Positions 1-15,259 of a DNA stretch of 60,257 bases are shown here, piece by piece. Position 1 is the stretch's first letter; every line of letters begins with the position of its first letter. Under the pieces are notes generated by a model. That model ran no database searches, was not told where the DNA came from, and was given only the letters and a program-made list of their open reading frames with translations. Source of the DNA: Gammaproteobacteria bacterium (GTDB taxonomy: Bacteria; Pseudomonadota; Gammaproteobacteria; Pseudomonadales; JANQJO01); the NCBI GenBank assembly GCA_037380725.1, contig JARRRL010000023.1, positions 1 through 60,257 of the forward strand, written 5' to 3'. Position numbers and translations under genes: made by a program.

Positions 1-1979
1 GTGAGCGAACCACCGTCATAATCGCCATTACTACCATTCAGCGCATCCAGTTCGGTATCGCTGGCGGTGGCGTCGCCTCCAGAATCCAGGGTGACCGTGC
101 TGCCAATGCCCGCCCAAGCAACCGAGTCACTGTCCAGGTTGGCGAGAGCCGGTGCGTTATTGACCAGCGAGGTAAGGGTACTGCTGTTGACGGTGGTCAA
201 ACCACCGGACGTGGCTTTCAGCGCGATGCTCTCACTGGCCCCGGAATTGGTGTATTGCAGTGCCAGACCGGTAAAGGTAGCGGCACCGGAACTGGGCGAG
301 AGCGTGACAGTGGTGCCATCTCCATCTAAGTCCCCGGTCCCAGACATACTGTTCACTGTACCGTCGACGGTGCCGTCGCTCGGGTCCGTTACCTCGAGTA
401 CGATATTGGTGCTGTAGCCGGTGTCCAAAATGTCGTTGGCGTCCACGGCTTGAATTACCGGGTCGGTGGTGAAATCCGTCGAGGAGCCGCTGTCGATCGT
501 GGTTGGCACGGGCTGGGTATCAAACGCCAACTTGGTGGCGACGACATCGGAGGTCAACGAGCCAGAGGTGATTGTGGCAAACGCACCGCTGTCGGCATCG
601 AGAACATAACTCTCGCCATCGGCGGTGGCGGTATAGGTGACACTGTTGAAGGTGGCCACGCCGGAACTGGCGGCGACCGTGGTCGTACCACTGAGCGATC
701 CAGCGCCGCTGTTTTTGGAGACGACGACGTTGGACGAATAATCGACATCCGTATTGCCTGCCGCATCCTGGGCCGTGACCGCAAAGGAGGTCATAGCGCT
801 GCCGGAGGTATCGCCAGAGGTCGGCGTTGTGGTGAAAGCAATTTTACTGGCGCTCACCGTCGTCGCCATATTGCCCGTGGCGACGGCGGCATTGGCGCCA
901 CTCATCTGAGTCTTGGCGCCGTCCACAGTCAGGTCGGTATCACCATCAATAGAAATTGTTACCGTCTGATTGTCGGTAATGCCGGTGTTGTCGTTCCAAT
1001 AAGCGGACACCGTACAGGTGCTATTGCCACCATCGGTCACCGAAATACCTGTGGAGGTAAAGCTGACCGTCGAACCGGAGGGCGCGATATCCGACTTGGT
1101 CGCACAGCCGGAGAGACCGAAGCGGAGTTTGGAGAAGTTGGCCGAGGCAGTGCCACCCAAGGTCAGATCGATCTGGCTGACGTCGAGAGTCAGCCCATCA
1201 CCGCCACCGCCGTCAACAAGGGTGAAATCGAAGACATTGATTTTGTTCCCTGAACCGGATGCCGTGGTGGGAAGATTGATCGGCTCTGTAACCCCGCCTG
1301 CGGCGATCAGGGTGCCGTCGCTGTTGTTGCTGGCTGTAGCATCATCAACGACAATATTTGCTATCGCAAACCGAGCATCATACTTGATGGAGTTAGACGG
1401 GTTGTCATAAGGAAATTCAATGGTAACTGCATCAACGTTTTGCCATAATGCACTGTTGAAATTAGAAGCTCTGGTTAGGGTGAACACATCACCAACCCCT
1501 CCATCAGGAGGAGTTATCGTCGCGGTGACCGTCTGTGAGCCATTCGAATAGCCGGTTAGTATAATAGAATGGTGACCTAACGTTTGAACCACCTGATAGA
1601 ACGTCACTGCATCAAAACTGAAATTGGTCCCGGCTACCTCATACAGTTTTACGCCTCTGCTCGGATCAGCGTAATAGACATTATTTAATAGGGTACTAGA
1701 AATTGTCCCGTTACCAGGTGAGAAAAACCAATCATCAAAATCCGTAAACGTGCTAGCAGTACCCGCATCCAGTACAAAGGTGAGATCGCCTGCCGTATCA
1801 AGGCTAACATTTGCAATACCATTAGCACCATCTCTAACATCGCTTAAGCTACCAGATCCGGCGGTGTAATCTATCGTCTTTTGTGCCGCCCAGACATCGA
1901 CTGAAAATAGCGATACGACGAATAATGCCGCTATAGCAAGTATATTTGCTGCCATACTTTCAATCGTATTTGACTTCAT
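1..1979 (-). CDS. large secreted repetitive surface protein (Ig-like-repeat adhesin type), N-terminal part only; runs off the left edge
   Basis: My own reverse-complement translation. ATG at 1979 (GGAG 7 nt upstream) gives MKSNTIESMAANILAIAALFVVSLFSVDVWA/AQ, a signal peptide. The frame stays open to position 1; I assume it is missing from the ORF track because it has no stop in the window. T/S/G/D/V-rich repeated segments, e.g. SGAGSLSGTTTVAASSGVATFNSVTYTATADGESYVLDA. Confidence 0.6.
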   Translation of the reverse strand, partial: MKSNTIESMAANILAIAALFVVSLFSVDVWAAQKTIDYTAGSGSLSDVRDGANGIANVSLDTAGDLTFVLDAGTASTFTDFDDWFFSPGNGTISSTLLNNVYYADPSRGVKLYEVAGTNFSFDAVTFYQVVQTLGHHSIILTGYSNGSQTVTATITPPDGGVGDVFTLTRASNFNSALWQNVDAVTIEFPYDNPSNSIKYDARFAIANIVVDDATASNNSDGTLIAAGGVTEPINLPTTASGSGNKINVFDFTLVDGGGGDGLTLDVSQIDLTLGGTASANFSKLRFGLSGCATKSDIAPSGSTVSFTSTGISVTDGGNSTCTVSAYWNDNTGITDNQTVTISIDGDTDLTVDGAKTQMSGANAAVATGNMATTVSASKIAFTTTPTSGDTSGSAMTSFAVTAQDAAGNTDVDYSSNVVVSKNSGAGSLSGTTTVAASSGVATFNSVTYTATADGESYVLDADSGAFATITSGSLTSDVVATKLAFDTQPVPTTIDSGSSTDFTTDPVIQAVDANDILDTGYSTNIVLEVTDPSDGTVDGTVNSMSGTGDLDGDGTTVTLSPSSGAATFTGLALQYTNSGASESIALKATSGGLTTVNSSTLTSLVNNAPALANLDSDSVAWAGIGSTVTLDSGGDATASDTELDALNGSNGDYDGGSL

Positions 1980-2110
1980 TTTCTTTGCTCCAATCGACAA
2001 AGATGCTTTACATGATCAACAAAAGCCATTACACGCCTAAGCAAGAACAAATTGGCTTTGATTGGCTCATTTTCACGAACCAAGCAAAGCCTACAACAGC
2101 ATCATTAAGG

Positions 2111-2719
2111 TTAATCGCGTGGCGGATAGACACCTCGCATCGAGATAAGCCAATTGAGAGGCATAACCGGATTAAGAATACTAATCGGTTTAGACATACC
2201 AGTATCTTCAACCACAACCGTGCCTCTCACGACGCCACCCGAAACGGTTAATCCTAAAATTTCCGTCAAACTGGTAGGTTGAAATCCACCGGGCTTGAAA
2301 TAGCTTGCGCTGCTATTCGCCCCAAGATAGGTCGACGTATCAGGCTCGTTAGCATTCGCTGGATTATTCGCTACTTCCAAAGTAGCACTCACGTCGCCAC
2401 CACTAGGCACAAAAGTGGCTTCATGCGTATGTGACGGCAATTGGCTTTTCGTCAAGGTGACCTGCTCAAACCCCATTTCAAAACCTTGTTTATAATCCAT
2501 ACCGCCAGGCCTGCTCCCTTGACCAACGGGACTACGCCCACGCATATCAGGCAACCCAAAAACCGTGCGAGCATCGCCGCCATACATGGCGCCCAACAAT
2601 GAAAACAAAGCTGGATTATCATTAACAGATTCTAATTGACCGAGACACATTGCCCAATTCTCAATGGTGAACGTCCCGCCAAATACCGTCATTGTTCCAA
2701 GATAAGGATCAACAGCCAT
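2111..2719 (-). CDS. phage tail collar domain (MdpB-like) protein, copy 2
   Basis: 202 aa. N-terminus MAVDPYLGTMTVFGGTFTIENWAMCLGQ...NPALFSLLGAMYGGDARTVFGLPDMRGRSP...LPSHTHEA and C-terminus ILNPVMPLNWLISMRGVYPPR match the collar-domain family pattern. RBS AAGGAA upstream. Confidence 0.85.
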   Translation of the reverse strand: MAVDPYLGTMTVFGGTFTIENWAMCLGQLESVNDNPALFSLLGAMYGGDARTVFGLPDMRGRSPVGQGSRPGGMDYKQGFEMGFEQVTLTKSQLPSHTHEATFVPSGGDVSATLEVANNPANANEPDTSTYLGANSSASYFKPGGFQPTSLTEILGLTVSGGVVRGTVVVEDTGMSKPISILNPVMPLNWLISMRGVYPPRD

Positions 2720-2804
2720 ACTATTTCCTTTTCGTTTGTAAAATTACTTAAGTTGTGTGCATACTGGAGTCACCTCCTGCGCACCTGAGGAAGGGTGACT
2801 GCAA

Positions 2805-2857
2805 GATAGAAACCCACATCTTAGACAAATTGATTACTGATTATGATCTTGATTTTT
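2805..2857 (-). pseudogene. remnant of the 5' end of a second copy of the 3646-4143 gene (start codon lost, in-frame stop)
   Basis: 2829-2857 matches 4113-4141 at 27/29 nt and 2805-2820 equals 4089-4104. Translates KIKIIISNQFV*DVGFY versus MKIKITISNQYAYDVGFY. Confidence 0.7.
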
Positions 2858-2875
2858 AACGCACCACTTCAACCT

Positions 2876-2901
2876 GATTGGCTCGACTTCTCGAGCCAAT
2901 C
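2876..2901. other. perfect 11-bp stem / 4-nt loop hairpin 20 nt downstream of collar copy 1
   Basis: gattggctcga-cttc-tcgagccaatc. No U-tract follows on the minus strand, so it is not a canonical intrinsic terminator. Confidence 0.5.
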
Positions 2902-2921
2902 AACTCGCAGAATAACCACCA

Positions 2922-3530
2922 TTAGGCACGCGGAGGATATGCCCCCGCAGTCGCAATCAACCAGTTAATGGGGAGAACCGGGTTCAGAATTGGAATGGGC
3001 ACAGAGGATCCTGTTCTATCAACGGTCACTACCCCTCCTCCGCCACCACCAGAAACTGTTAACCCAGAAATTTCAACCAAATTCGGTCCGCCAAAACTAG
3101 GCGTGTAAAAGCTATCACTGCTATTGACGCCGAGATAGGTATCAGAGGATGGAACTGCAGTATTGGCAGGATTTGTTGCCACTTCGAGCTTACCACTCAC
3201 TCCACTGCCACCAACTGGCGTGAAAGTCGCGTTATGCGTGTGAGATGGTAAATGAGCCACATCCAAGGTGATGTGTTCAACCCCCATTTTTAAACCTTGT
3301 TGATACTCCATACCACCTGGTAGTATACCGTGACCCACGGGACTGCGCCCGCGCATATCGGGTAAACCATAGGTGGTGCGCGCATCCCCACCATAGAGGG
3401 TGCCCAATAGTGAATACAAAGCCGTATTTTCACTGATCGCTTGTATTTGCCCAAGACACATTGCCCAATGTTCAATGGTGAACACCCCGCCAAATACCGT
3501 CATTGTGCCAAGAAAAGGTTCAGTAGCCAT
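2922..3530 (-). CDS. phage tail collar domain (MdpB-like) protein, copy 1
   Basis: 202 aa, paralog of 2111-2719 (MATEPFLGTMTVFGGVFTIEHWAMCLGQ...LPSHTHNA...ILNPVLPINWLIATAGAYPPR). RBS GGAAGGA. Confidence 0.85.
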   Translation of the reverse strand: MATEPFLGTMTVFGGVFTIEHWAMCLGQIQAISENTALYSLLGTLYGGDARTTYGLPDMRGRSPVGHGILPGGMEYQQGLKMGVEHITLDVAHLPSHTHNATFTPVGGSGVSGKLEVATNPANTAVPSSDTYLGVNSSDSFYTPSFGGPNLVEISGLTVSGGGGGGVVTVDRTGSSVPIPILNPVLPINWLIATAGAYPPRA

Positions 3531-3645
3531 GCTGTTTCCTTCCGTTTATTAGGTTAACCAAATTGCGTTCATACTGGATACTGCATCAAATGAAAACCAA
3601 GCATAAACTCGTGAAGAAATGTCACTGCTGACACGTCAAAACACA

Positions 3646-4143
3646 TTACTTCTGCTGCGAGCCCTCCTCCTGAGTACCTTCGGGAAGAGAACGACAAGAG
3701 ACCGGTGGAATAAAAAACTCGGGCAATGAAACACGCCGAGCCTCACCCGATAAAACCTTATCCAGACAGACTGTACCGACATCGTTGATGCGCAACTCCA
3801 TTTCAGCAGCGTCATCAGCAGTAGGAAAGCGCCAATATATCTCGGTGGTTTTATAGCGTAACAACGCCATTTGCTCGTATTGATCGAAATCACTCGGGTT
3901 TTCACAGAATCTGTCGTGACAGTTCTCAAGCTTTTGCTTACCTAAAAACTGCACCAGCAAACTCCCCATTCCGGGAATATCCAGGATACTGCACTCACCA
4001 CTGTCGACCGTGAATGCGCCTTGGCCTTCCAGGCGTGAGATACGCTCACAATGACTGTTGGCATCCGGATACAGACCATCACCGAACGGATAGAAACCCA
4101 CATCATAAGCATATTGATTACTGATTGTGATCTTGATTTTCAT
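3646..4143 (-). CDS. hypothetical Cys-containing protein (165 aa), family not recognised
   Basis: Clean ORF in operon position between the formyltransferase and the collar genes. I recognise no motif. Confidence 0.55.
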   Translation of the reverse strand: MKIKITISNQYAYDVGFYPFGDGLYPDANSHCERISRLEGQGAFTVDSGECSILDIPGMGSLLVQFLGKQKLENCHDRFCENPSDFDQYEQMALLRYKTTEIYWRFPTADDAAEMELRINDVGTVCLDKVLSGEARRVSLPEFFIPPVSCRSLPEGTQEEGSQQK

Positions 4144-4213
4144 GGCTCTCTCTCTTCTGGGTTGAAATAGCGGTTTTTAAAAAAATTGGGCTTCAAACAG
4201 ATTGCACCTTCGA

Positions 4214-5164
4214 TTATCCGAACCTCGACTCCTGGCCATTAAGTTCCAGTCCCGGCTCCACACCAAACAACACCGCAAACCGATAACCATCGAATATCCC
4301 TTCCGGGGTTGAGATCACATCAAGTCGAATGGCACCATCGAGCGTTTTTACGACAAGCCCAGATTCCAAACTGAGTGACAAAATAGTCCCTGGCCGCAAC
4401 CCCAAAACAGCATTGTCCACAGCCGTGGCTTGCAACACATTAAAACAGCCTTTCGGTGTTTTAAGCAGCGCGCCGCCCAAATTGGGATTGCCTGCACGAA
4501 TCAGATCAACCAATTGTTTGCTGCTCTGTTGCTGCCAATGTATCACCACATCTTCTTGCTGAATGGACGGTGCCAAGGCTGGATCAGATTTGATGGACTG
4601 TGGTTGCCAGTCCACAGACGATTCATCACGTTTTACACTAAATTCCTGCATCAGTTGCGGTACCGCTCTCGACACCTTTACAGACAAGCTCTGCAGTGTG
4701 TCAAAAGGGTGAACGGGCAAGACCAATTGACTGCCAATCGGACCTGCATCGGGCTGATCCGTCACTTGATGCAAGGTTAAACACACTTGCATTTCGCCGT
4801 TTCGTAATTGCCAATACAGCGGAAACGGCCCCCGATAATCTGGAAGCGCGGAAGGATGCAGGTTATAGAGACGTTGCTGAAAATAATCAATGACGTCATT
4901 GCAGAGAATATGCCGATACAAATAAATAAAGCCAGACGTCGCTTGAAAGCCATCCAAATGGGTCAATAATCGGTGTGGCTCTTGACGTTCATACCGACAG
5001 AGGGGTAATTGACGTTGCTGCAAATACCCCACCAGCTGATTCAGATCAGGATTCGGCTCGGCATCGACCAATACCACACAGGCCAATTGATCTGTCTGAG
5101 CCAAATACTCGATCGCCGGCAACGCCAAACAACTGCCGGTAAAAAAAGCGTAGCGCTGTTTCAT
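4214..5164 (-). CDS. formyltransferase family protein (Fmt/PurN-like N- and C-domains)
   Basis: LYNLHPSALPDYRGPFPLYWQLRNGE resembles the NxHxSLLPxxRG catalytic motif of formyltransferases. Start chosen at the MKQRYAFF ATG (5164) with GGAAGGA RBS; the ORF extends to 5194. Confidence 0.75.
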   Translation of the reverse strand: MKQRYAFFTGSCLALPAIEYLAQTDQLACVVLVDAEPNPDLNQLVGYLQQRQLPLCRYERQEPHRLLTHLDGFQATSGFIYLYRHILCNDVIDYFQQRLYNLHPSALPDYRGPFPLYWQLRNGEMQVCLTLHQVTDQPDAGPIGSQLVLPVHPFDTLQSLSVKVSRAVPQLMQEFSVKRDESSVDWQPQSIKSDPALAPSIQQEDVVIHWQQQSSKQLVDLIRAGNPNLGGALLKTPKGCFNVLQATAVDNAVLGLRPGTILSLSLESGLVVKTLDGAIRLDVISTPEGIFDGYRFAVLFGVEPGLELNGQESRFG

Positions 5165-5196
5165 GATGTTTCCTTCCATCGCACAACGTTTCATGA

Positions 5197-6447
5197 CTAC
5201 ACCCGATCAACTTTTACCGGCACAAAACCTGGTAAACCCGTTAATTGATAATAGAAACGAATATAATCCCCACTGTGAACAACAACGTTCTGGGGTAATG
5301 GAGATTTGGGCTTAACATCAACATAAAAAGTCATATCCGGTCTGGGATGGGTAATGCCCGAGTCATATTGATCAACGGTCTCGCCCTCAAACACCTCGAT
5401 ATGAGCATAAATGGCAAGAATGCGCGACGCGATGTCAGCAATACCCGTCGGAATTTGTACGGTATTCCCCTCAATCACATGAACACCGTCCGCCAGACGG
5501 ATCTCCTGCAAGGTGGGCAACGTGGATTGACTAATTTTCAGTAATTCACCCAACTCAACTCGCTGTGATTGAGCACAGGGATCCAGGTATTGGGAGTGAG
5601 CGAAGTCAGCCTCTTTCCATTGACGGTTAAATTCGGTTTCACCATCCACCAAAATGCCGCGAACCGAAATACTTTGCGGTAACATCAAGCCCGACTGCGA
5701 TAAAAATTGGCTCAGATGTTTGCTCATGCTAAACTGGCCTTCCTTGGAAAAACCATGTTGCATGGCCTCAATGATCAGCAGATCGATTTCGCCCGAGGGC
5801 CAAAATTGCGTCGCATCCGCTTCCACAACATTTTGAATGAAATCGCCGATACCCAGATCGGCAATCAACTGCCGCAACGACAGAATCGCGCCCGGCTGAA
5901 TATCAATTAACGTGACCTGTATTTGTTCGCTGGTGTAGCACGCGCGCTGCTTATAATAATTCAAGAGAGGCAGCAACAACGGGGCAAATGGACCACAGGC
6001 GGGATACAGTATGTGAACGTTAGACTGCTCTTCCAAAAGATTTCGAATCGCTTTGTCTATCCCACGAGCAAAACCTTTAATACGATAAATATCTTTAATC
6101 GTGGTACGACAATTCAGCGGTGACATGATCAACCCAGTACCTGAAATGTACTGCCTGGTCAATAACGCTTGCGATAAGCCCGCTTTGCTCATGCTCAGCA
6201 CGGCCTGCTCGTACATCTGGGTGAAAAGGTTATCTAAAACCGGGTGGGAAACTTCGCGATCAGTCAGCACGGCTTCCATCGCCTGGGTAAAGCTCTGCTG
6301 CAACTTTTGGCACTGCTCTGTCTTGGTCAGCGCTCCTTGAGTTACGGATTGCAGCAGGTTTCGTATCGTATGCTTGAGCAAATCATCGACTATTGACTCA
6401 GTAAAAGCGGTATACGACGGAGCCTGAGTGTTATTCCTATTCTCCAT
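5197..6447 (-). CDS. putative class I SAM-dependent methyltransferase (PRMT-like fold guess)
   Basis: HILYPACGPFAPLLLP resembles a motif-I Gly-rich loop, followed by an acidic DIQP and a C-terminal beta-rich region. Start at MENRNN (6447, GAAGG RBS); the ORF extends to 6516. The family call is tentative. Confidence 0.45.
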   Translation of the reverse strand: MENRNNTQAPSYTAFTESIVDDLLKHTIRNLLQSVTQGALTKTEQCQKLQQSFTQAMEAVLTDREVSHPVLDNLFTQMYEQAVLSMSKAGLSQALLTRQYISGTGLIMSPLNCRTTIKDIYRIKGFARGIDKAIRNLLEEQSNVHILYPACGPFAPLLLPLLNYYKQRACYTSEQIQVTLIDIQPGAILSLRQLIADLGIGDFIQNVVEADATQFWPSGEIDLLIIEAMQHGFSKEGQFSMSKHLSQFLSQSGLMLPQSISVRGILVDGETEFNRQWKEADFAHSQYLDPCAQSQRVELGELLKISQSTLPTLQEIRLADGVHVIEGNTVQIPTGIADIASRILAIYAHIEVFEGETVDQYDSGITHPRPDMTFYVDVKPKSPLPQNVVVHSGDYIRFYYQLTGLPGFVPVKVDRV

Positions 6448-7065
6448 TTTAATGCCTTCTATGTCAGGTTCTAGGACAGAACAATTACCATCAACTACCT
6501 GATTTCGATGCGCCATGAGACAAACAAACTCCTAGTTTGCTTTTTCACGCACCCTACCTAAGGGAAGACCAAAATCTGTGACAGATCAAACAAATCTACA
6601 CAAGGAATCACAAATACTTTCATAATACTGGCAAGGTTTTTGATTGCTAGACTGCTCTCTCGGTCGTAATGGCATAATAATGCAGCTGAACTTAAGAGAT
6701 TCGTATTCCAAACCAAGCGCGACCCCCTGAAAGCCACCAGAAAATCCGTAAAGAGGTATACGAAACAGAGACCGCCGTTTGGTGTCAGATACGTGGCATC
6801 TATAAAAGACAAAACGAATAAAAAGCAATAGACGACAAAATACTGACCCATTCCCGAAAACGGAGATAAAGACGAAGAATTAATCAATTGAAAAATCAAT
6901 CATAGATTTTCAAATAAAAATAGAGAAAAAAACCGCATTGGTTTCCTATTGCAGGCTTTGTTCAAGTTGACGAATTGTTCTGGAGAAAGCCACCAACTAT
7001 ACTGCCGCTGGCTCCCCAGTACCAAAAGCCAAAGACCAAAAACCAAAGACTGAAAGCCAAAGGCC

Positions 7066-7097
7066 ATGACCTAGGAACAACATGATCTAGGAACAAC
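7066..7097. repeat. tandem repeat, 2 x 16 bp
   Basis: atgacctaggaacaac / atgatctaggaacaac directly upstream of the 7118 ATG. Preceded by a degenerate ccaaag-rich stretch at 7021-7065. Confidence 0.9.
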
Positions 7098-7117
7098 AGC
7101 ACCATTAAGGAGAATGC

Positions 7118-8620
7118 ATGAATCGTTCACCACGAAATCGTTCAGCCGCGATACGCAGTCGTTTAGCCAGCTCGTTGGATTTACTGCATGCGCTAAAACG
7201 CTCACAGGATAGCGCCACAGCAACGGTCGCCAATCGCGCCTACGAAACCGAAAGGACTGACGAAACCTTACCGCCACAATCCCCCCCTTTTCTGGCCGAT
7301 CTTCCGCCGGTCGGTGCCGAGTATATCCCGCAACAGCATGCAACGAAAACGCTGAAAACCATCATTGACGAAAACTATTACGCGACCAATTTCGAGGAAG
7401 CCATCAAGATCGTTAGCGCTCAAAAAATTCCGGAGCTGGATCGCATCAAAACGCTAAACCAATTTTACTACTACGTCGACGCGCTGGTCACCTGGATACC
7501 CGAAATACGTGTTTGGAAATGGGATGGTGAAACACTGCACGAACGCACGGTGTACCTACGCATTACGCAATTTTATTACTACTTCAACCAGCCCCAACTG
7601 GAAGCCCTGCAAAGCCCCATTGCGCCAATAGAAGAAGACAGGCTATCGCCTCTCTCCAACTGGCTCCGAGCGTTTGCAGTTGAATGGGGCAATTTTTTGG
7701 ACACCCCAGCTTCAAAGCAATACTTGGAAAGTTTTAAATACGCACCCGAATACGCCTGGCAGGATTACGAAAAAGAGCCTCAGGACTACGAAACCTTCAA
7801 CGCCTATTTTGCCCGACAGTTCAAAGATATCGATGTGCAACGCCCCGTCGCCAGCGAGAACGATGACCGCGTGGTGGTGTTCCCGGCGGAATCCACGTTT
7901 GTGGGCCAATGGCCAGTGAGCACACCCGTTGGCGAACCACTGCCCGCCGCACCGTCTATTGTGGTCAAAAACATCGAATGGTCTATTGCCGAATTATTAA
8001 AAGACTCTGAATACGCCGCAGACTTTGAAGGCGGTATTTTTTGTCACAGTTTCCTCAACACCTACGATTACCACCGTCAACACACACCCGTCGCCGGAAA
8101 AGTATTGGAGGCTAAATTCATACCGGGTCAAGTTTACCTGCAGGTCGATTTGCAAGAACAAGACGAATCAGATGAAAATGGCAACGTTGCGCGCGCCGTT
8201 ATTCCGCAACGCTACCTGAACGCTGAAGATCCCACTGGCTATCAATTCGTTCAATGCCGTGGCTTACTGGTCTTGGACTCCGCCATTGGTAAAGTGGCTG
8301 TTTTGCCCATGGGGATGGCGCAAGTGTCTTCCGTTGTTTTCGTTACGCCCAAAGATGAAGGCCACAAGCCCATCACACTCAGCCCAGCGGAAACCCGCGA
8401 GCTCAGTTATCACGAGCAGGTTGTCCGCGTAAATCAAAAAATTAACCAAGAATTAGTCGGAAAAACACTCAAAAAAGGAGAAATGTTCTCTTACTTTCAA
8501 TTCGGCGGCTCAGACTGTGTTGTTGTCTTTGAGCGCAAAGCCAACGTGAACGTAAGCGCCCAAGTCAACACCCACTACCCGATCCGTTCTCAATACGCAT
8601 TTGCGAATGTGAATCAGTAG
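7118..8620 (+). CDS. phosphatidylserine decarboxylase-family protein with long N-terminal associated domain
   Basis: 500 aa. FCHSFLNTYDYHRQHTPVAGKV... and the C-terminal YFQFGGSDCVVVFE (G-S autocleavage-type motif) are typical of PSD-family pyruvoyl enzymes. Much longer than canonical Psd. Confidence 0.75.
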   Translation: MNRSPRNRSAAIRSRLASSLDLLHALKRSQDSATATVANRAYETERTDETLPPQSPPFLADLPPVGAEYIPQQHATKTLKTIIDENYYATNFEEAIKIVSAQKIPELDRIKTLNQFYYYVDALVTWIPEIRVWKWDGETLHERTVYLRITQFYYYFNQPQLEALQSPIAPIEEDRLSPLSNWLRAFAVEWGNFLDTPASKQYLESFKYAPEYAWQDYEKEPQDYETFNAYFARQFKDIDVQRPVASENDDRVVVFPAESTFVGQWPVSTPVGEPLPAAPSIVVKNIEWSIAELLKDSEYAADFEGGIFCHSFLNTYDYHRQHTPVAGKVLEAKFIPGQVYLQVDLQEQDESDENGNVARAVIPQRYLNAEDPTGYQFVQCRGLLVLDSAIGKVAVLPMGMAQVSSVVFVTPKDEGHKPITLSPAETRELSYHEQVVRVNQKINQELVGKTLKKGEMFSYFQFGGSDCVVVFERKANVNVSAQVNTHYPIRSQYAFANVNQ

Positions 8621-13867: not shown

Positions 13868-15259
13868 TCACAAAGTACGATAATAACCGTTCAAGGCCGC
13901 CACCCGATACGCTTCCGCCATGGTGGGATAATTAAACGTCGTGTGGGTAAAGTAACGCAGCGAGTTCGCTTCCCCTTTTTGACTCATGATGGCTTGACCA
14001 ATATGAACAATCTCCGCCGCTTGATAACCGAAACAATGAATACCCAAAATCTCATACGTTTCACGATGAAACAAAATTTTCAGCATCCCCACCGTTTCAT
14101 TGCTCAATTGAGCGCGCGCTAAGGTTTTAAAATGGGCTTTGCCAATCTCATAGGGAATTTTTTCTCGAGTCAGTTCCTCTTCCGTTCTGCCTAATGAACT
14201 GATTTCCGGTAAGGTATAAATGCCAACCGGGACATTCGAGACGTAAAATTTATCCTCTGGGTGAGCAATGGCAGCCCCCACCGAGCGGCCTTGATCATAG
14301 GCCGCACTGGCCAAAGCCGGCCACCCCACCACATCACCCGCTGCGTAAATATGCGGCACGTTGGTTTGGTAATCCTGATTAACCTGAAGCTGCCCACGAT
14401 TATTGGCTTCCAAGCCAGCCAATTCCAAACTTAAAGTATCGGTGTTGCCCACTCGACCATTGCACCACAACATCGCGTCGGCTTTAATGCGTTTGCCCGA
14501 CTTCAGGTACAGCGTTATCTTGTTGTCATCGCCCTCGACCTGCTCGTACACTTCACCGTGTCGAATCACAACGCCCACTTCCCGCAGGTGATAACTCAGC
14601 GCTTCAGAAATTTCTTGATCCAAAAAATCCATCAGGTGTGCGCGCGTATCAATCAGCTCAACCCGCATGCCCAAACCACAAAATATGCACGCGTACTCAC
14701 AGCCAATCACACCCGCACCATAAATAATAATTTTTTTAGGATCGAAATCCAGCGACAAAATGGAATCACTGTCAAACAAACGTGGCAAATTAAAATCAAC
14801 ATTGGGGGGGTGATAAGGTCGCGATCCCGTACAAATCACGATGTTATTGGCTTTAAGCGTTTCCGTGACACCTTCACCTTGACACACTTCAAGGGTGTGC
14901 GGGTCCACAAAGCGCGCCTGGCCAAAATAGAGTTTTACCCGATTTTTCGCATAAAAAGACGTGCGCAAATCAACTTGCTTCTGAATCACAGCCTCAGCAC
15001 GCTTCAGAACGCGCGCAAAAGAAAAGTTACGCGGTTCGCCGATGTCTCGGAACATGTTGTCCGTATTAAAACGGATAATTTGCTGTACAGCATGACGCAG
15101 GGCCTTAGAAGGAATCGTCCCCCAGTGCGTACAGTTCCCCCCTACCGAACCCTGATCATCGACAACCGCTACCCGCAAGCCCTGTTTTGACGCTCGCATG
15201 GCGCACCCTTCACCAGAGGGGCCAGCACCGATAATCACTACATCGTACTGCGTGGGCAT
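13868..15259 (-). CDS. sthA: soluble pyridine nucleotide transhydrogenase
   Basis: [18 protein letters not shown]...[19 protein letters not shown]... follows the SthA/UdhA N-terminal pattern. 463 aa. Confidence 0.9.

Follow-up and report, generated by a model that had tools for sequence, protein, structure and literature searches.

A conserved bacterial gene module in which a predicted PRMT-fold methyltransferase and a formyltransferase accompany tail-collar proteins and a giant, putative surface protein

Stand-alone tail-collar proteins of the COG4675/MdpB-like type are common in bacterial genomes, and we found no function assigned to them. The closest described setting for such genes is a set of "previously uncharacterized conserved gene neighborhoods" reported in silico by Iyer, Abhiman, de Souza and Aravind in 2010 (NAR 38:5261, PMC2938197), in which T4 gp12-like tail-collar proteins occur with a beta-hydroxylase, PhyH-methyltransferase fusions, sulfotransferases and AlkB-like dioxygenases. 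There the collar proteins are proposed to be substrates that are hydroxylated and then sulfated, a prediction made without experiments, and the occurrence of sulfotransferases and dioxygenases in metabolite pathways is also discussed; the text contains "formyl" 0 times and mentions neither a formyltransferase nor a giant protein. Here we describe a related locus at the left end of a 60,257-nucleotide stretch of a gammaproteobacterial genome (assembly GCA_037380725.1, contig JARRRL010000023.1; the whole stretch is referred to as the window), in which two collar genes lie between a methyltransferase-formyltransferase gene pair and the gene for a giant protein. A preliminary description of the window held that no system of this architecture had been described, a statement that needs narrowing in view of the hydroxylase, sulfotransferase and tail-collar neighbourhoods of the 2010 paper. 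Beyond that paper we found no literature pairing collar proteins with a formyltransferase, a methyltransferase or an adhesin, and no experimental study. As far as we could find, three things are new: the core of methyltransferase, formyltransferase, collar and giant genes, a protein arginine methyltransferase (PRMT)-type fold that includes the double-E loop, and how widely the synteny extends.

The module is read leftwards, on the minus strand. It begins with a methyltransferase-like gene (5197-6447, 416 aa); an upstream ATG at 6516 would extend the product to 439 aa, and the internal methionine at 6447 is the start position in homologues. There follow an ArnA/Fmt-like formyltransferase gene (4214-5164, 316 aa, or 326 aa from an alternative start at 5194), a clade-restricted accessory gene encoding a 165-aa beta-sandwich protein (3646-4143), the genes for tail-collar protein 1 (2922-3530) and its paralogue tail-collar protein 2 (2111-2719), each encoding 202 aa, and the part of the giant gene that encodes its N-terminal 659 aa (1-1979), the remainder running off the window. 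Listing and translation of the open reading frames (ORFs) place these six co-directional genes exactly where the preliminary description had them. Its term "tightly spaced" does not describe the gaps, which are 2 or 32 (depending on the formyltransferase start), 70, 115, 202 and 131 nt.

A scan of one genome per species, using tblastn, ORF clustering and counting, yielded 79 related loci, or 80 with the window. They derive mostly from marine species and fall in the Gamma-, Alpha- and Zetaproteobacteria and the Campylobacterota, including Alteromonadales, Vibrionales, Oceanospirillales, a Phenylobacterium metagenome-assembled genome (MAG), Mariprofundaceae and Arcobacteraceae/Campylobacteraceae. 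A giant gene was called where an ORF of at least 750 aa, or an ORF left open at a contig end, directly follows the collar genes. The formyltransferase gene directly follows the methyltransferase gene in 79 of the 80 loci, the order methyltransferase, formyltransferase, collar (one to four copies) is kept in 76 of 77 informative loci, and a giant ORF comes directly next in 70 of 75 informative loci (64 with an ORF of at least 750 aa and six that are open-ended). Five loci retain collar genes with no adjacent giant ORF. The sole locus without a collar gene (L027) has the methyltransferase, formyltransferase and giant genes only, and is a second copy on a plasmid in a strain whose chromosome carries the full cassette. 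The neighbourhood proposed earlier is conserved across four classes, and these counts support the view that the genes work as a conserved unit and are not neighbours by chance. No conserved type I secretion system (T1SS), glycosyltransferase or sugar-pathway gene was found in the 80 loci.

The methyltransferase-like protein matches no Pfam or NCBIfam family, and a phmmer search of the PDB returned no PRMT, its sole match, to a thermosome (E 0.09), being noise. An AlphaFold2 (AF2) model built with 16 homologues (predicted local distance difference test score, pLDDT, 79.5; predicted template-modelling score, pTM, 0.81) shows a Rossmann domain and a C-terminal beta-barrel, preceded by an N-terminal extension of three helices. 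When this model is compared with the PDB using Foldseek, the top 50 matches are all PRMTs (PRMT5, PRMT7, CARM1, PRMT6, PRMT2 and PRMT9; E 7e-11 to 7e-9, TM 0.37-0.53), so that the 439-aa protein, earlier called methyltransferase-like from its sequence, can be given a PRMT-type fold. Invariant among the homologues are the motif YPACGPFAP after strand beta1, D182 at the end of beta2, D211, E227, E236, G253 and P257. E227 and E236 form an E-x8-E pair within LEAMQHGFxKEG, after beta4. An hhalign comparison with PRMT1, statistically weak (E 0.064), places both glutamates on the double-E loop, in the segment SEWMGYCLFYES, and aligns LSQSGLMLP with LAPDGLIFP. A conserved QW (276-277) and HS (284-285) are also present; a counterpart of the THW loop was not identified. 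The modelled PRMT fold, the invariant E-x8-E and the LxxGxxxP motif would together indicate a protein substrate. To our knowledge, PRMT-fold enzymes of bacteria are essentially unstudied. Close homologues of the window protein number 358 and are found in Pseudoalteromonas, Vibrio, Motilimonas, Photobacterium, Agarivorans and others. A profile search of 1.84 billion representative proteins returned 1150 clusters (50% identity) at E<1e-10, about 25 of which are full-length orthologues, the rest being paralogues of about 330-360 aa, some of them fused to PhyH, Asp_Arg_Hydrox or GNAT domains.

The formyltransferase is recognised by both Formyl_trans_N (1.7e-15, 57.7 bits) and Formyl_trans_C (4.2e-09, 36.9 bits), each above its Pfam cut-off. 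Its closest relative in the PDB is the formyltransferase domain of ArnA (5e-18), followed by Fmt (1e-9), and sugar N-formyltransferases match as well. The catalytic Asn-His-Asp triad is kept, with NLHPS and PDAG aligning with NLHGS and ADAG of ArnA, where the triad residues are N102, H104 and D140. The protein lies below every NCBIfam equivalog cut-off, including those for Fmt (TIGR00460, 107.8 versus 201.5 bits) and ArnA (PRK08125, 99.4 versus 777).

Both collar proteins are well matched by Pfam Collar PF07484 (5.8e-20 and 1.1e-19; 71.4 and 70.6 bits, cut-off 24) and by PHROG tail and tail-fibre families, and the comparison of collar protein 1 with T4 gp12 gave 0.02. Each carries PSHTH, an instance of the HxH metal-site motif of the gp12 receptor-binding domain, and neither has a signal peptide. 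The motifs P.H.H and PDxRGR are conserved in at least 80% of the 92 cassette collars, among which no cassette-specific target residue was found; PDxRGR and HxH also belong to the consensus of the Collar family in general. One collar copy is present in about 62 loci, two in about 12 and four in one, the last being Photobacterium chitinilyticum (L046, 12308-15086), where four tandem collar paralogues separate the formyltransferase and giant genes. In eight loci the collar gene or genes are inverted relative to the enzyme genes, with their position retained.

The two collar genes of the window share 278 nt of their 5' halves at 78% identity. In the gap between them lies a degenerate 5'-end remnant of a second copy of the 165-aa gene (2805-2856, minus strand), 52 nt of which are 90% identical to 4089-4140 at the start of the intact coding sequence and which is interrupted by a stop codon, and the 3' flanks of the two collar genes are also alike (2059-2087 and 2875-2903). 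The remnant and the matching flanks indicate that the second collar gene arose by tandem duplication of a unit comprising the 165-aa gene and a collar gene, after which the extra 165-aa copy decayed.

The giant protein begins with a signal-peptide-like segment, read by eye as MKSNTIESMAANILAIAALFVVSLFSVDVWA followed by AQ. It had been presented as a giant protein of immunoglobulin-like repeats; no part of the 659 aa inside the window matches any Pfam family, so Ig repeats find no backing in that part, and neither "giant" nor "repeat" follows from the window alone. Both terms are upheld by the 64,858-bp contig JARRRN010000027.1 (locus L083; gammaproteobacterial MAG GCA_037380665.1), which encodes a protein 100% identical to the 165-aa protein, and by the orthologous loci. 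On that contig the frame shifts at 14209-14222, about 75 nt past the left end of the window: an ORF of 692 aa ends, and the coding sequence resumes in another frame for at least 1485 aa, with PATR repeats, as far as the contig end. Either the MAG is misassembled here or the frameshift is real, perhaps marking a pseudogene. Giant ORFs at orthologous loci span 1900 to more than 2700 aa and contain Big_13 or Cadherin domains. As a group the giant proteins are heterogeneous (Big_13, Cadherin, DUF4347, RTX and DUF4214 domains occur, and some have beta-barrel-like C-termini), and most, not all, start with a signal-peptide-like segment. Single-linkage clustering of their N-termini joined 52 of 57 sequences; similarity between repeats may account for the joining, and the grouping was not taken as evidence of a shared N-terminal domain.

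Many of the related loci carry additional enzyme genes upstream of, or between, the core genes. These encode methyltransferase-PhyH fusions (666 aa at locus L041), an Asp/Asn beta-hydroxylase, to which a second methyltransferase paralogue is in some cases fused, an AlkB-like 2-oxoglutarate (2OG) oxygenase, an adenosine 5'-phosphosulfate (APS) kinase, and Sulfotransfer_3 proteins, the last encoded between the collar and giant genes in ten loci. The AlkB-like example from Moritella given by Iyer et al. (PMC2938197) appears to be one of them, locus L069 of Moritella sp. PE36 with its AlkB-like ORF, judging by organism name alone. The window locus, in which no beta-hydroxylase, PhyH, AlkB dioxygenase or sulfotransferase gene was found, is a minimal form of a module that is widespread on bacterial chromosomes.

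More distant methyltransferase paralogues (about 340-360 aa) were inspected in seven contexts, one of which, on a contig of only 1.7 kb, was too short to be informative. Two of the remaining six adjoin a collar gene with no formyltransferase gene, both in genomes with Por_Secre_tail proteins of the type IX secretion system (T9SS) kind; a third comes after an ORF of 2747 aa or more, a fourth lies ahead of a gene for a Por_Secre_tail protein, and two have no collar gene on their contig. A distant collar protein encoded beside a methyltransferase paralogue (L088, 7272-7937, minus strand) has a twin-arginine signal (RRGFL), which raises the possibility that some stand-alone collar proteins may be exported folded.

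Modification of either the collar or the giant protein by the two enzymes would fit this gene context, and we infer, tentatively and at a little less than an even chance, that the enzymes modify the co-encoded collar proteins, which act with the giant surface protein. In this reading the collars are small, probably trimeric proteins related to the tip with which the T4 short tail fibre binds its receptor, and have a putative HxH metal site. They would be modified in the cytoplasm, perhaps methylated on arginine by the PRMT-fold enzyme and N-formylated on an amine by the ArnA/Fmt-like one, and might then work with the giant protein encoded immediately downstream, for instance in a binding or capping role. 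The collar protein is favoured as substrate because it is the most constant non-enzyme partner and accompanies the methyltransferase family in distant lineages where the formyltransferase is missing, and collars persist in the five loci with no adjacent giant gene, with only one locus being collar-less. The accessory enzymes (hydroxylase, dioxygenases, sulfotransferase and APS kinase), of kinds that commonly decorate proteins, also favour it, as do the frequent fusions of the methyltransferase domain to PhyH, the Asp/Asn hydroxylase or GNAT and the independent proposal of tail-collar substrates in PMC2938197, and the twin-arginine collar of L088 fits folding and modification in the cytoplasm followed by export. 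Several observations weigh on the other side. Modification of these proteins is a prediction, and membership of the methyltransferase in the PRMTs is weakly supported at the sequence level (no Pfam match, and the hhalign E value of 0.064). The conserved PDxRGR and HxH motifs, shared with the Collar family generally, single out no cassette-specific target residue. How window collars that have no signal peptide would meet a Sec-exported giant protein is unexplained, co-transcription is not universal given the eight loci with inverted collar genes, and the giant protein, almost as constant a neighbour as the collar, could be the substrate itself.

That last possibility, in which the enzymes modify the giant protein before its export and the collars serve as cytoplasmic adaptors, chaperones or separate partners, we regard as unlikely, though it is the main competitor. 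It accommodates the presence of a giant ORF right after the cassette at 70 of the 75 informative loci, the collar-less L027, the distant methyltransferase paralogue whose gene comes straight after an ORF of 2747 aa or more together with others beside T9SS-secreted proteins, and the lack of an export signal on the window collars. It does not readily accommodate giant proteins whose domains and modes of secretion or anchoring are so heterogeneous that a common recognition element is not evident, nor the five loci that keep the methyltransferase, formyltransferase and collar genes and have no adjacent giant. Improbable in our estimation is a pathway in which the two enzymes produce or modify a glycan or other small molecule, such as an N-formylated and methylated amino sugar, that the collars bind as lectins or the surface protein carries. 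The resemblance of the formyltransferase to the UDP-Ara4N formyltransferase domain of ArnA, its closest solved relative, and to sugar N-formyltransferases would suit it, and T4 gp12-type domains bind lipopolysaccharide (LPS) sugars. The sulfotransferases and dioxygenases of related loci act in metabolite pathways too, as PMC2938197 notes. Such a route is made less likely by the absence of conserved genes for making sugars or peptides: across the 80 loci there is no conserved gene for an aminotransferase, dehydratase, nucleotidyltransferase, glycosyltransferase, non-ribosomal peptide synthetase (NRPS) or exporter. Moreover, the modelled two-domain PRMT architecture would be typical of enzymes acting on proteins, and the one non-enzyme partner conserved throughout is a protein. 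The collar domain is of phage derivation and matches PHROG tail-fibre families, and the methyltransferase has a PADLOC match to mad2 (8.4e-08), so that the remnant of a prophage or tailocin, or a system of defence against phages, in place of a surface module, has also to be weighed; we consider this very improbable. No sheath, tube, baseplate, portal or terminase gene lies nearby and only the collars match PHROG tail families, so a prophage or tailocin was rejected, in agreement with the earlier view of the window. The MADS defence system (PADLOC mads_2) was rejected likewise, the mad2 match being single, weak, partial and limited to the Rossmann region with no other PADLOC match. No further phage or MADS component occurs in the window flanks or at the 79 related loci, and the synteny with giant surface proteins extends over many genera. 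The genes flanking the module are those for the divergent phosphatidylserine decarboxylase (PSD)-like protein described below, UbiB/ABC1, two pyridine-nucleotide disulphide oxidoreductases, ApbE and an Na+-NQR operon.

The 165-aa protein has no family match in Pfam, NCBIfam, PADLOC or PHROG. Its homologues number only 25, from Pseudoalteromonas, Agarivorans and MAGs, and its gene is present in 26 of the 80 loci. It had been called Cys-rich, a label that does not survive comparison, since only C126 is invariant in 19 homologues. The AF2 model (pLDDT 80.1) is an all-beta sandwich for which Foldseek found no credible neighbour (best E 0.013, TM 0.2-0.3); the structural comparison suggested in the preliminary description was thus productive for the methyltransferase, where it gave the PRMT fold, and gave no credible match for this protein.

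An AT-rich spacer of 601 bp (6517-7117) separates the module from the divergent PSD-like gene. Its length and composition (GC 0.39-0.44, compared with 0.46-0.50 in the genes) agree with the upstream region of about 600 bp reported before, and it is presumed to be a promoter or regulatory region. There is one sigma-70-like match on the minus strand (7025-6996), the number of promoter-like matches in the spacer being not above that expected from shuffled sequence. Rfam gave no match in the spacer or module, a crude terminator scan of the minus strand found none in the intergenic gaps, and a tandem-repeat scan found nothing informative. A 16-nt direct repeat with perfectly adjacent copies (CATGACCTAGGAACAA / CATGATCTAGGAACAA) is present at 7065-7096, about 20 nt upstream of the start of the PSD-like gene, and may be a regulatory site. 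The PSD-like gene itself (7118-8620, plus strand) encodes 500 aa, in which a phosphatidylserine-decarboxylase domain (Pfam 5.7e-35) is joined to a long extension at the N-terminus; its scores fall well short of every PSD equivalog cut-off. Absent from all 79 related loci, it was rejected as a member of the module.

Among the various other genes upstream of the module in related genomes, we note that in the Pseudoalteromonas rubra/Photobacterium group the gene immediately upstream of that for the methyltransferase specifies a protein of about 245 aa (L001, 9198-9941, and 10 other loci; family F5). This protein has a twin-arginine signal and NHL-like repeats and no Pfam match. In P. rubra (L082, 14-8722) and 10 similar loci (families F6, F9, F11 and F13) a Ser/Thr-kinase-AAA_16 protein of about 1300 aa is encoded divergently upstream and is accompanied by a YcaO, amidohydrolase and RNP_Burkhold gene cluster. 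These divergent genes look like a separate cluster of the RiPP (ribosomally synthesized and post-translationally modified peptide) type or a STAND-type regulator. In V. alginolyticus an AAA_16/TPR/HTH protein takes the position of the kinase-AAA_16 protein.

Surface colonisation by marine Vibrio and Pseudoalteromonas is under the control of giant adhesins. The near-invariant four-part synteny in nearly 80 species, among them the culturable and genetically tractable Vibrio alginolyticus, turns the proposed modification of collar proteins into a concrete hypothesis that can be tested by mass spectrometry. It brings together collar proteins, bacterial PRMT-fold enzymes and giant adhesins, and bears on the in silico prediction of 2010, for which we found no experimental follow-up. 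In its fullest form, which we consider doubtful, modification of the collars would amount to a dedicated pathway of arginine methylation and N-formylation, with hydroxylation and sulfation added in relatives, that matures phage-fibre-derived, lectin-like trimers to arm, cap or anchor giant adhesins. If true, it would be a bacterial counterpart of the decoration of extracellular-matrix proteins, and would provide a defined substrate for a bacterial PRMT-fold enzyme and a function for the MdpB/COG4675 collars.

Several known systems resemble parts of the module. The operons of Iyer et al. share with it a tail-collar gene and a methyltransferase domain of the same superfamily, fused to PhyH in relatives, and genes for 3'-phosphoadenosine 5'-phosphosulfate (PAPS) synthesis occur in related loci; they differ in that the window has no dioxygenase or sulfotransferase genes, and the constant methyltransferase-formyltransferase-collar-giant core does not appear in the text of PMC2938197. 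Giant adhesin operons, such as those of LapA, SiiE and MpIBP-type T1SS substrates and of RtxC/HlyC-activated RTX proteins, likewise combine a giant repetitive surface protein with accessory genes, and the RTX toxins offer a precedent for a dedicated cytoplasmic modifying enzyme. Unlike these, the module loci have no conserved T1SS, LapG/LapD or acyltransferase genes, most of their giant proteins start with a signal-peptide-like segment, and the accessory set is a different one.

The individual proteins show the same mixture of likeness and departure. Eukaryotic PRMTs (PRMT1, 5, 6, 7 and CARM1) have the same succession of Rossmann domain and C-terminal beta-barrel, E-x8-E after beta4 and LxxGxxxP, whereas the window methyltransferase is only 11-16% identical to them, has no Pfam PRMT match and carries the three-helix N-terminal extension. 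With the N-terminal domain of ArnA and with Fmt, the formyltransferase shares Formyl_trans_N and Formyl_trans_C, the Asn-His-Asp triad and the motif HxSxLPxxRG, but it falls far below their equivalog cut-offs, is associated with neither the ArnA dehydrogenase domain nor arn genes, and has a collar protein as its constant neighbour. Finally, the window collars resemble the receptor-binding region of T4 gp12 and the COG4675 MdpB-like proteins in their Collar domain, HxH motif and conserved C-terminal strand. They differ from gp12 in being stand-alone proteins of about 200 aa that have no fibre shaft, are encoded on the chromosome away from phage genes, and are paired with modifying enzymes.

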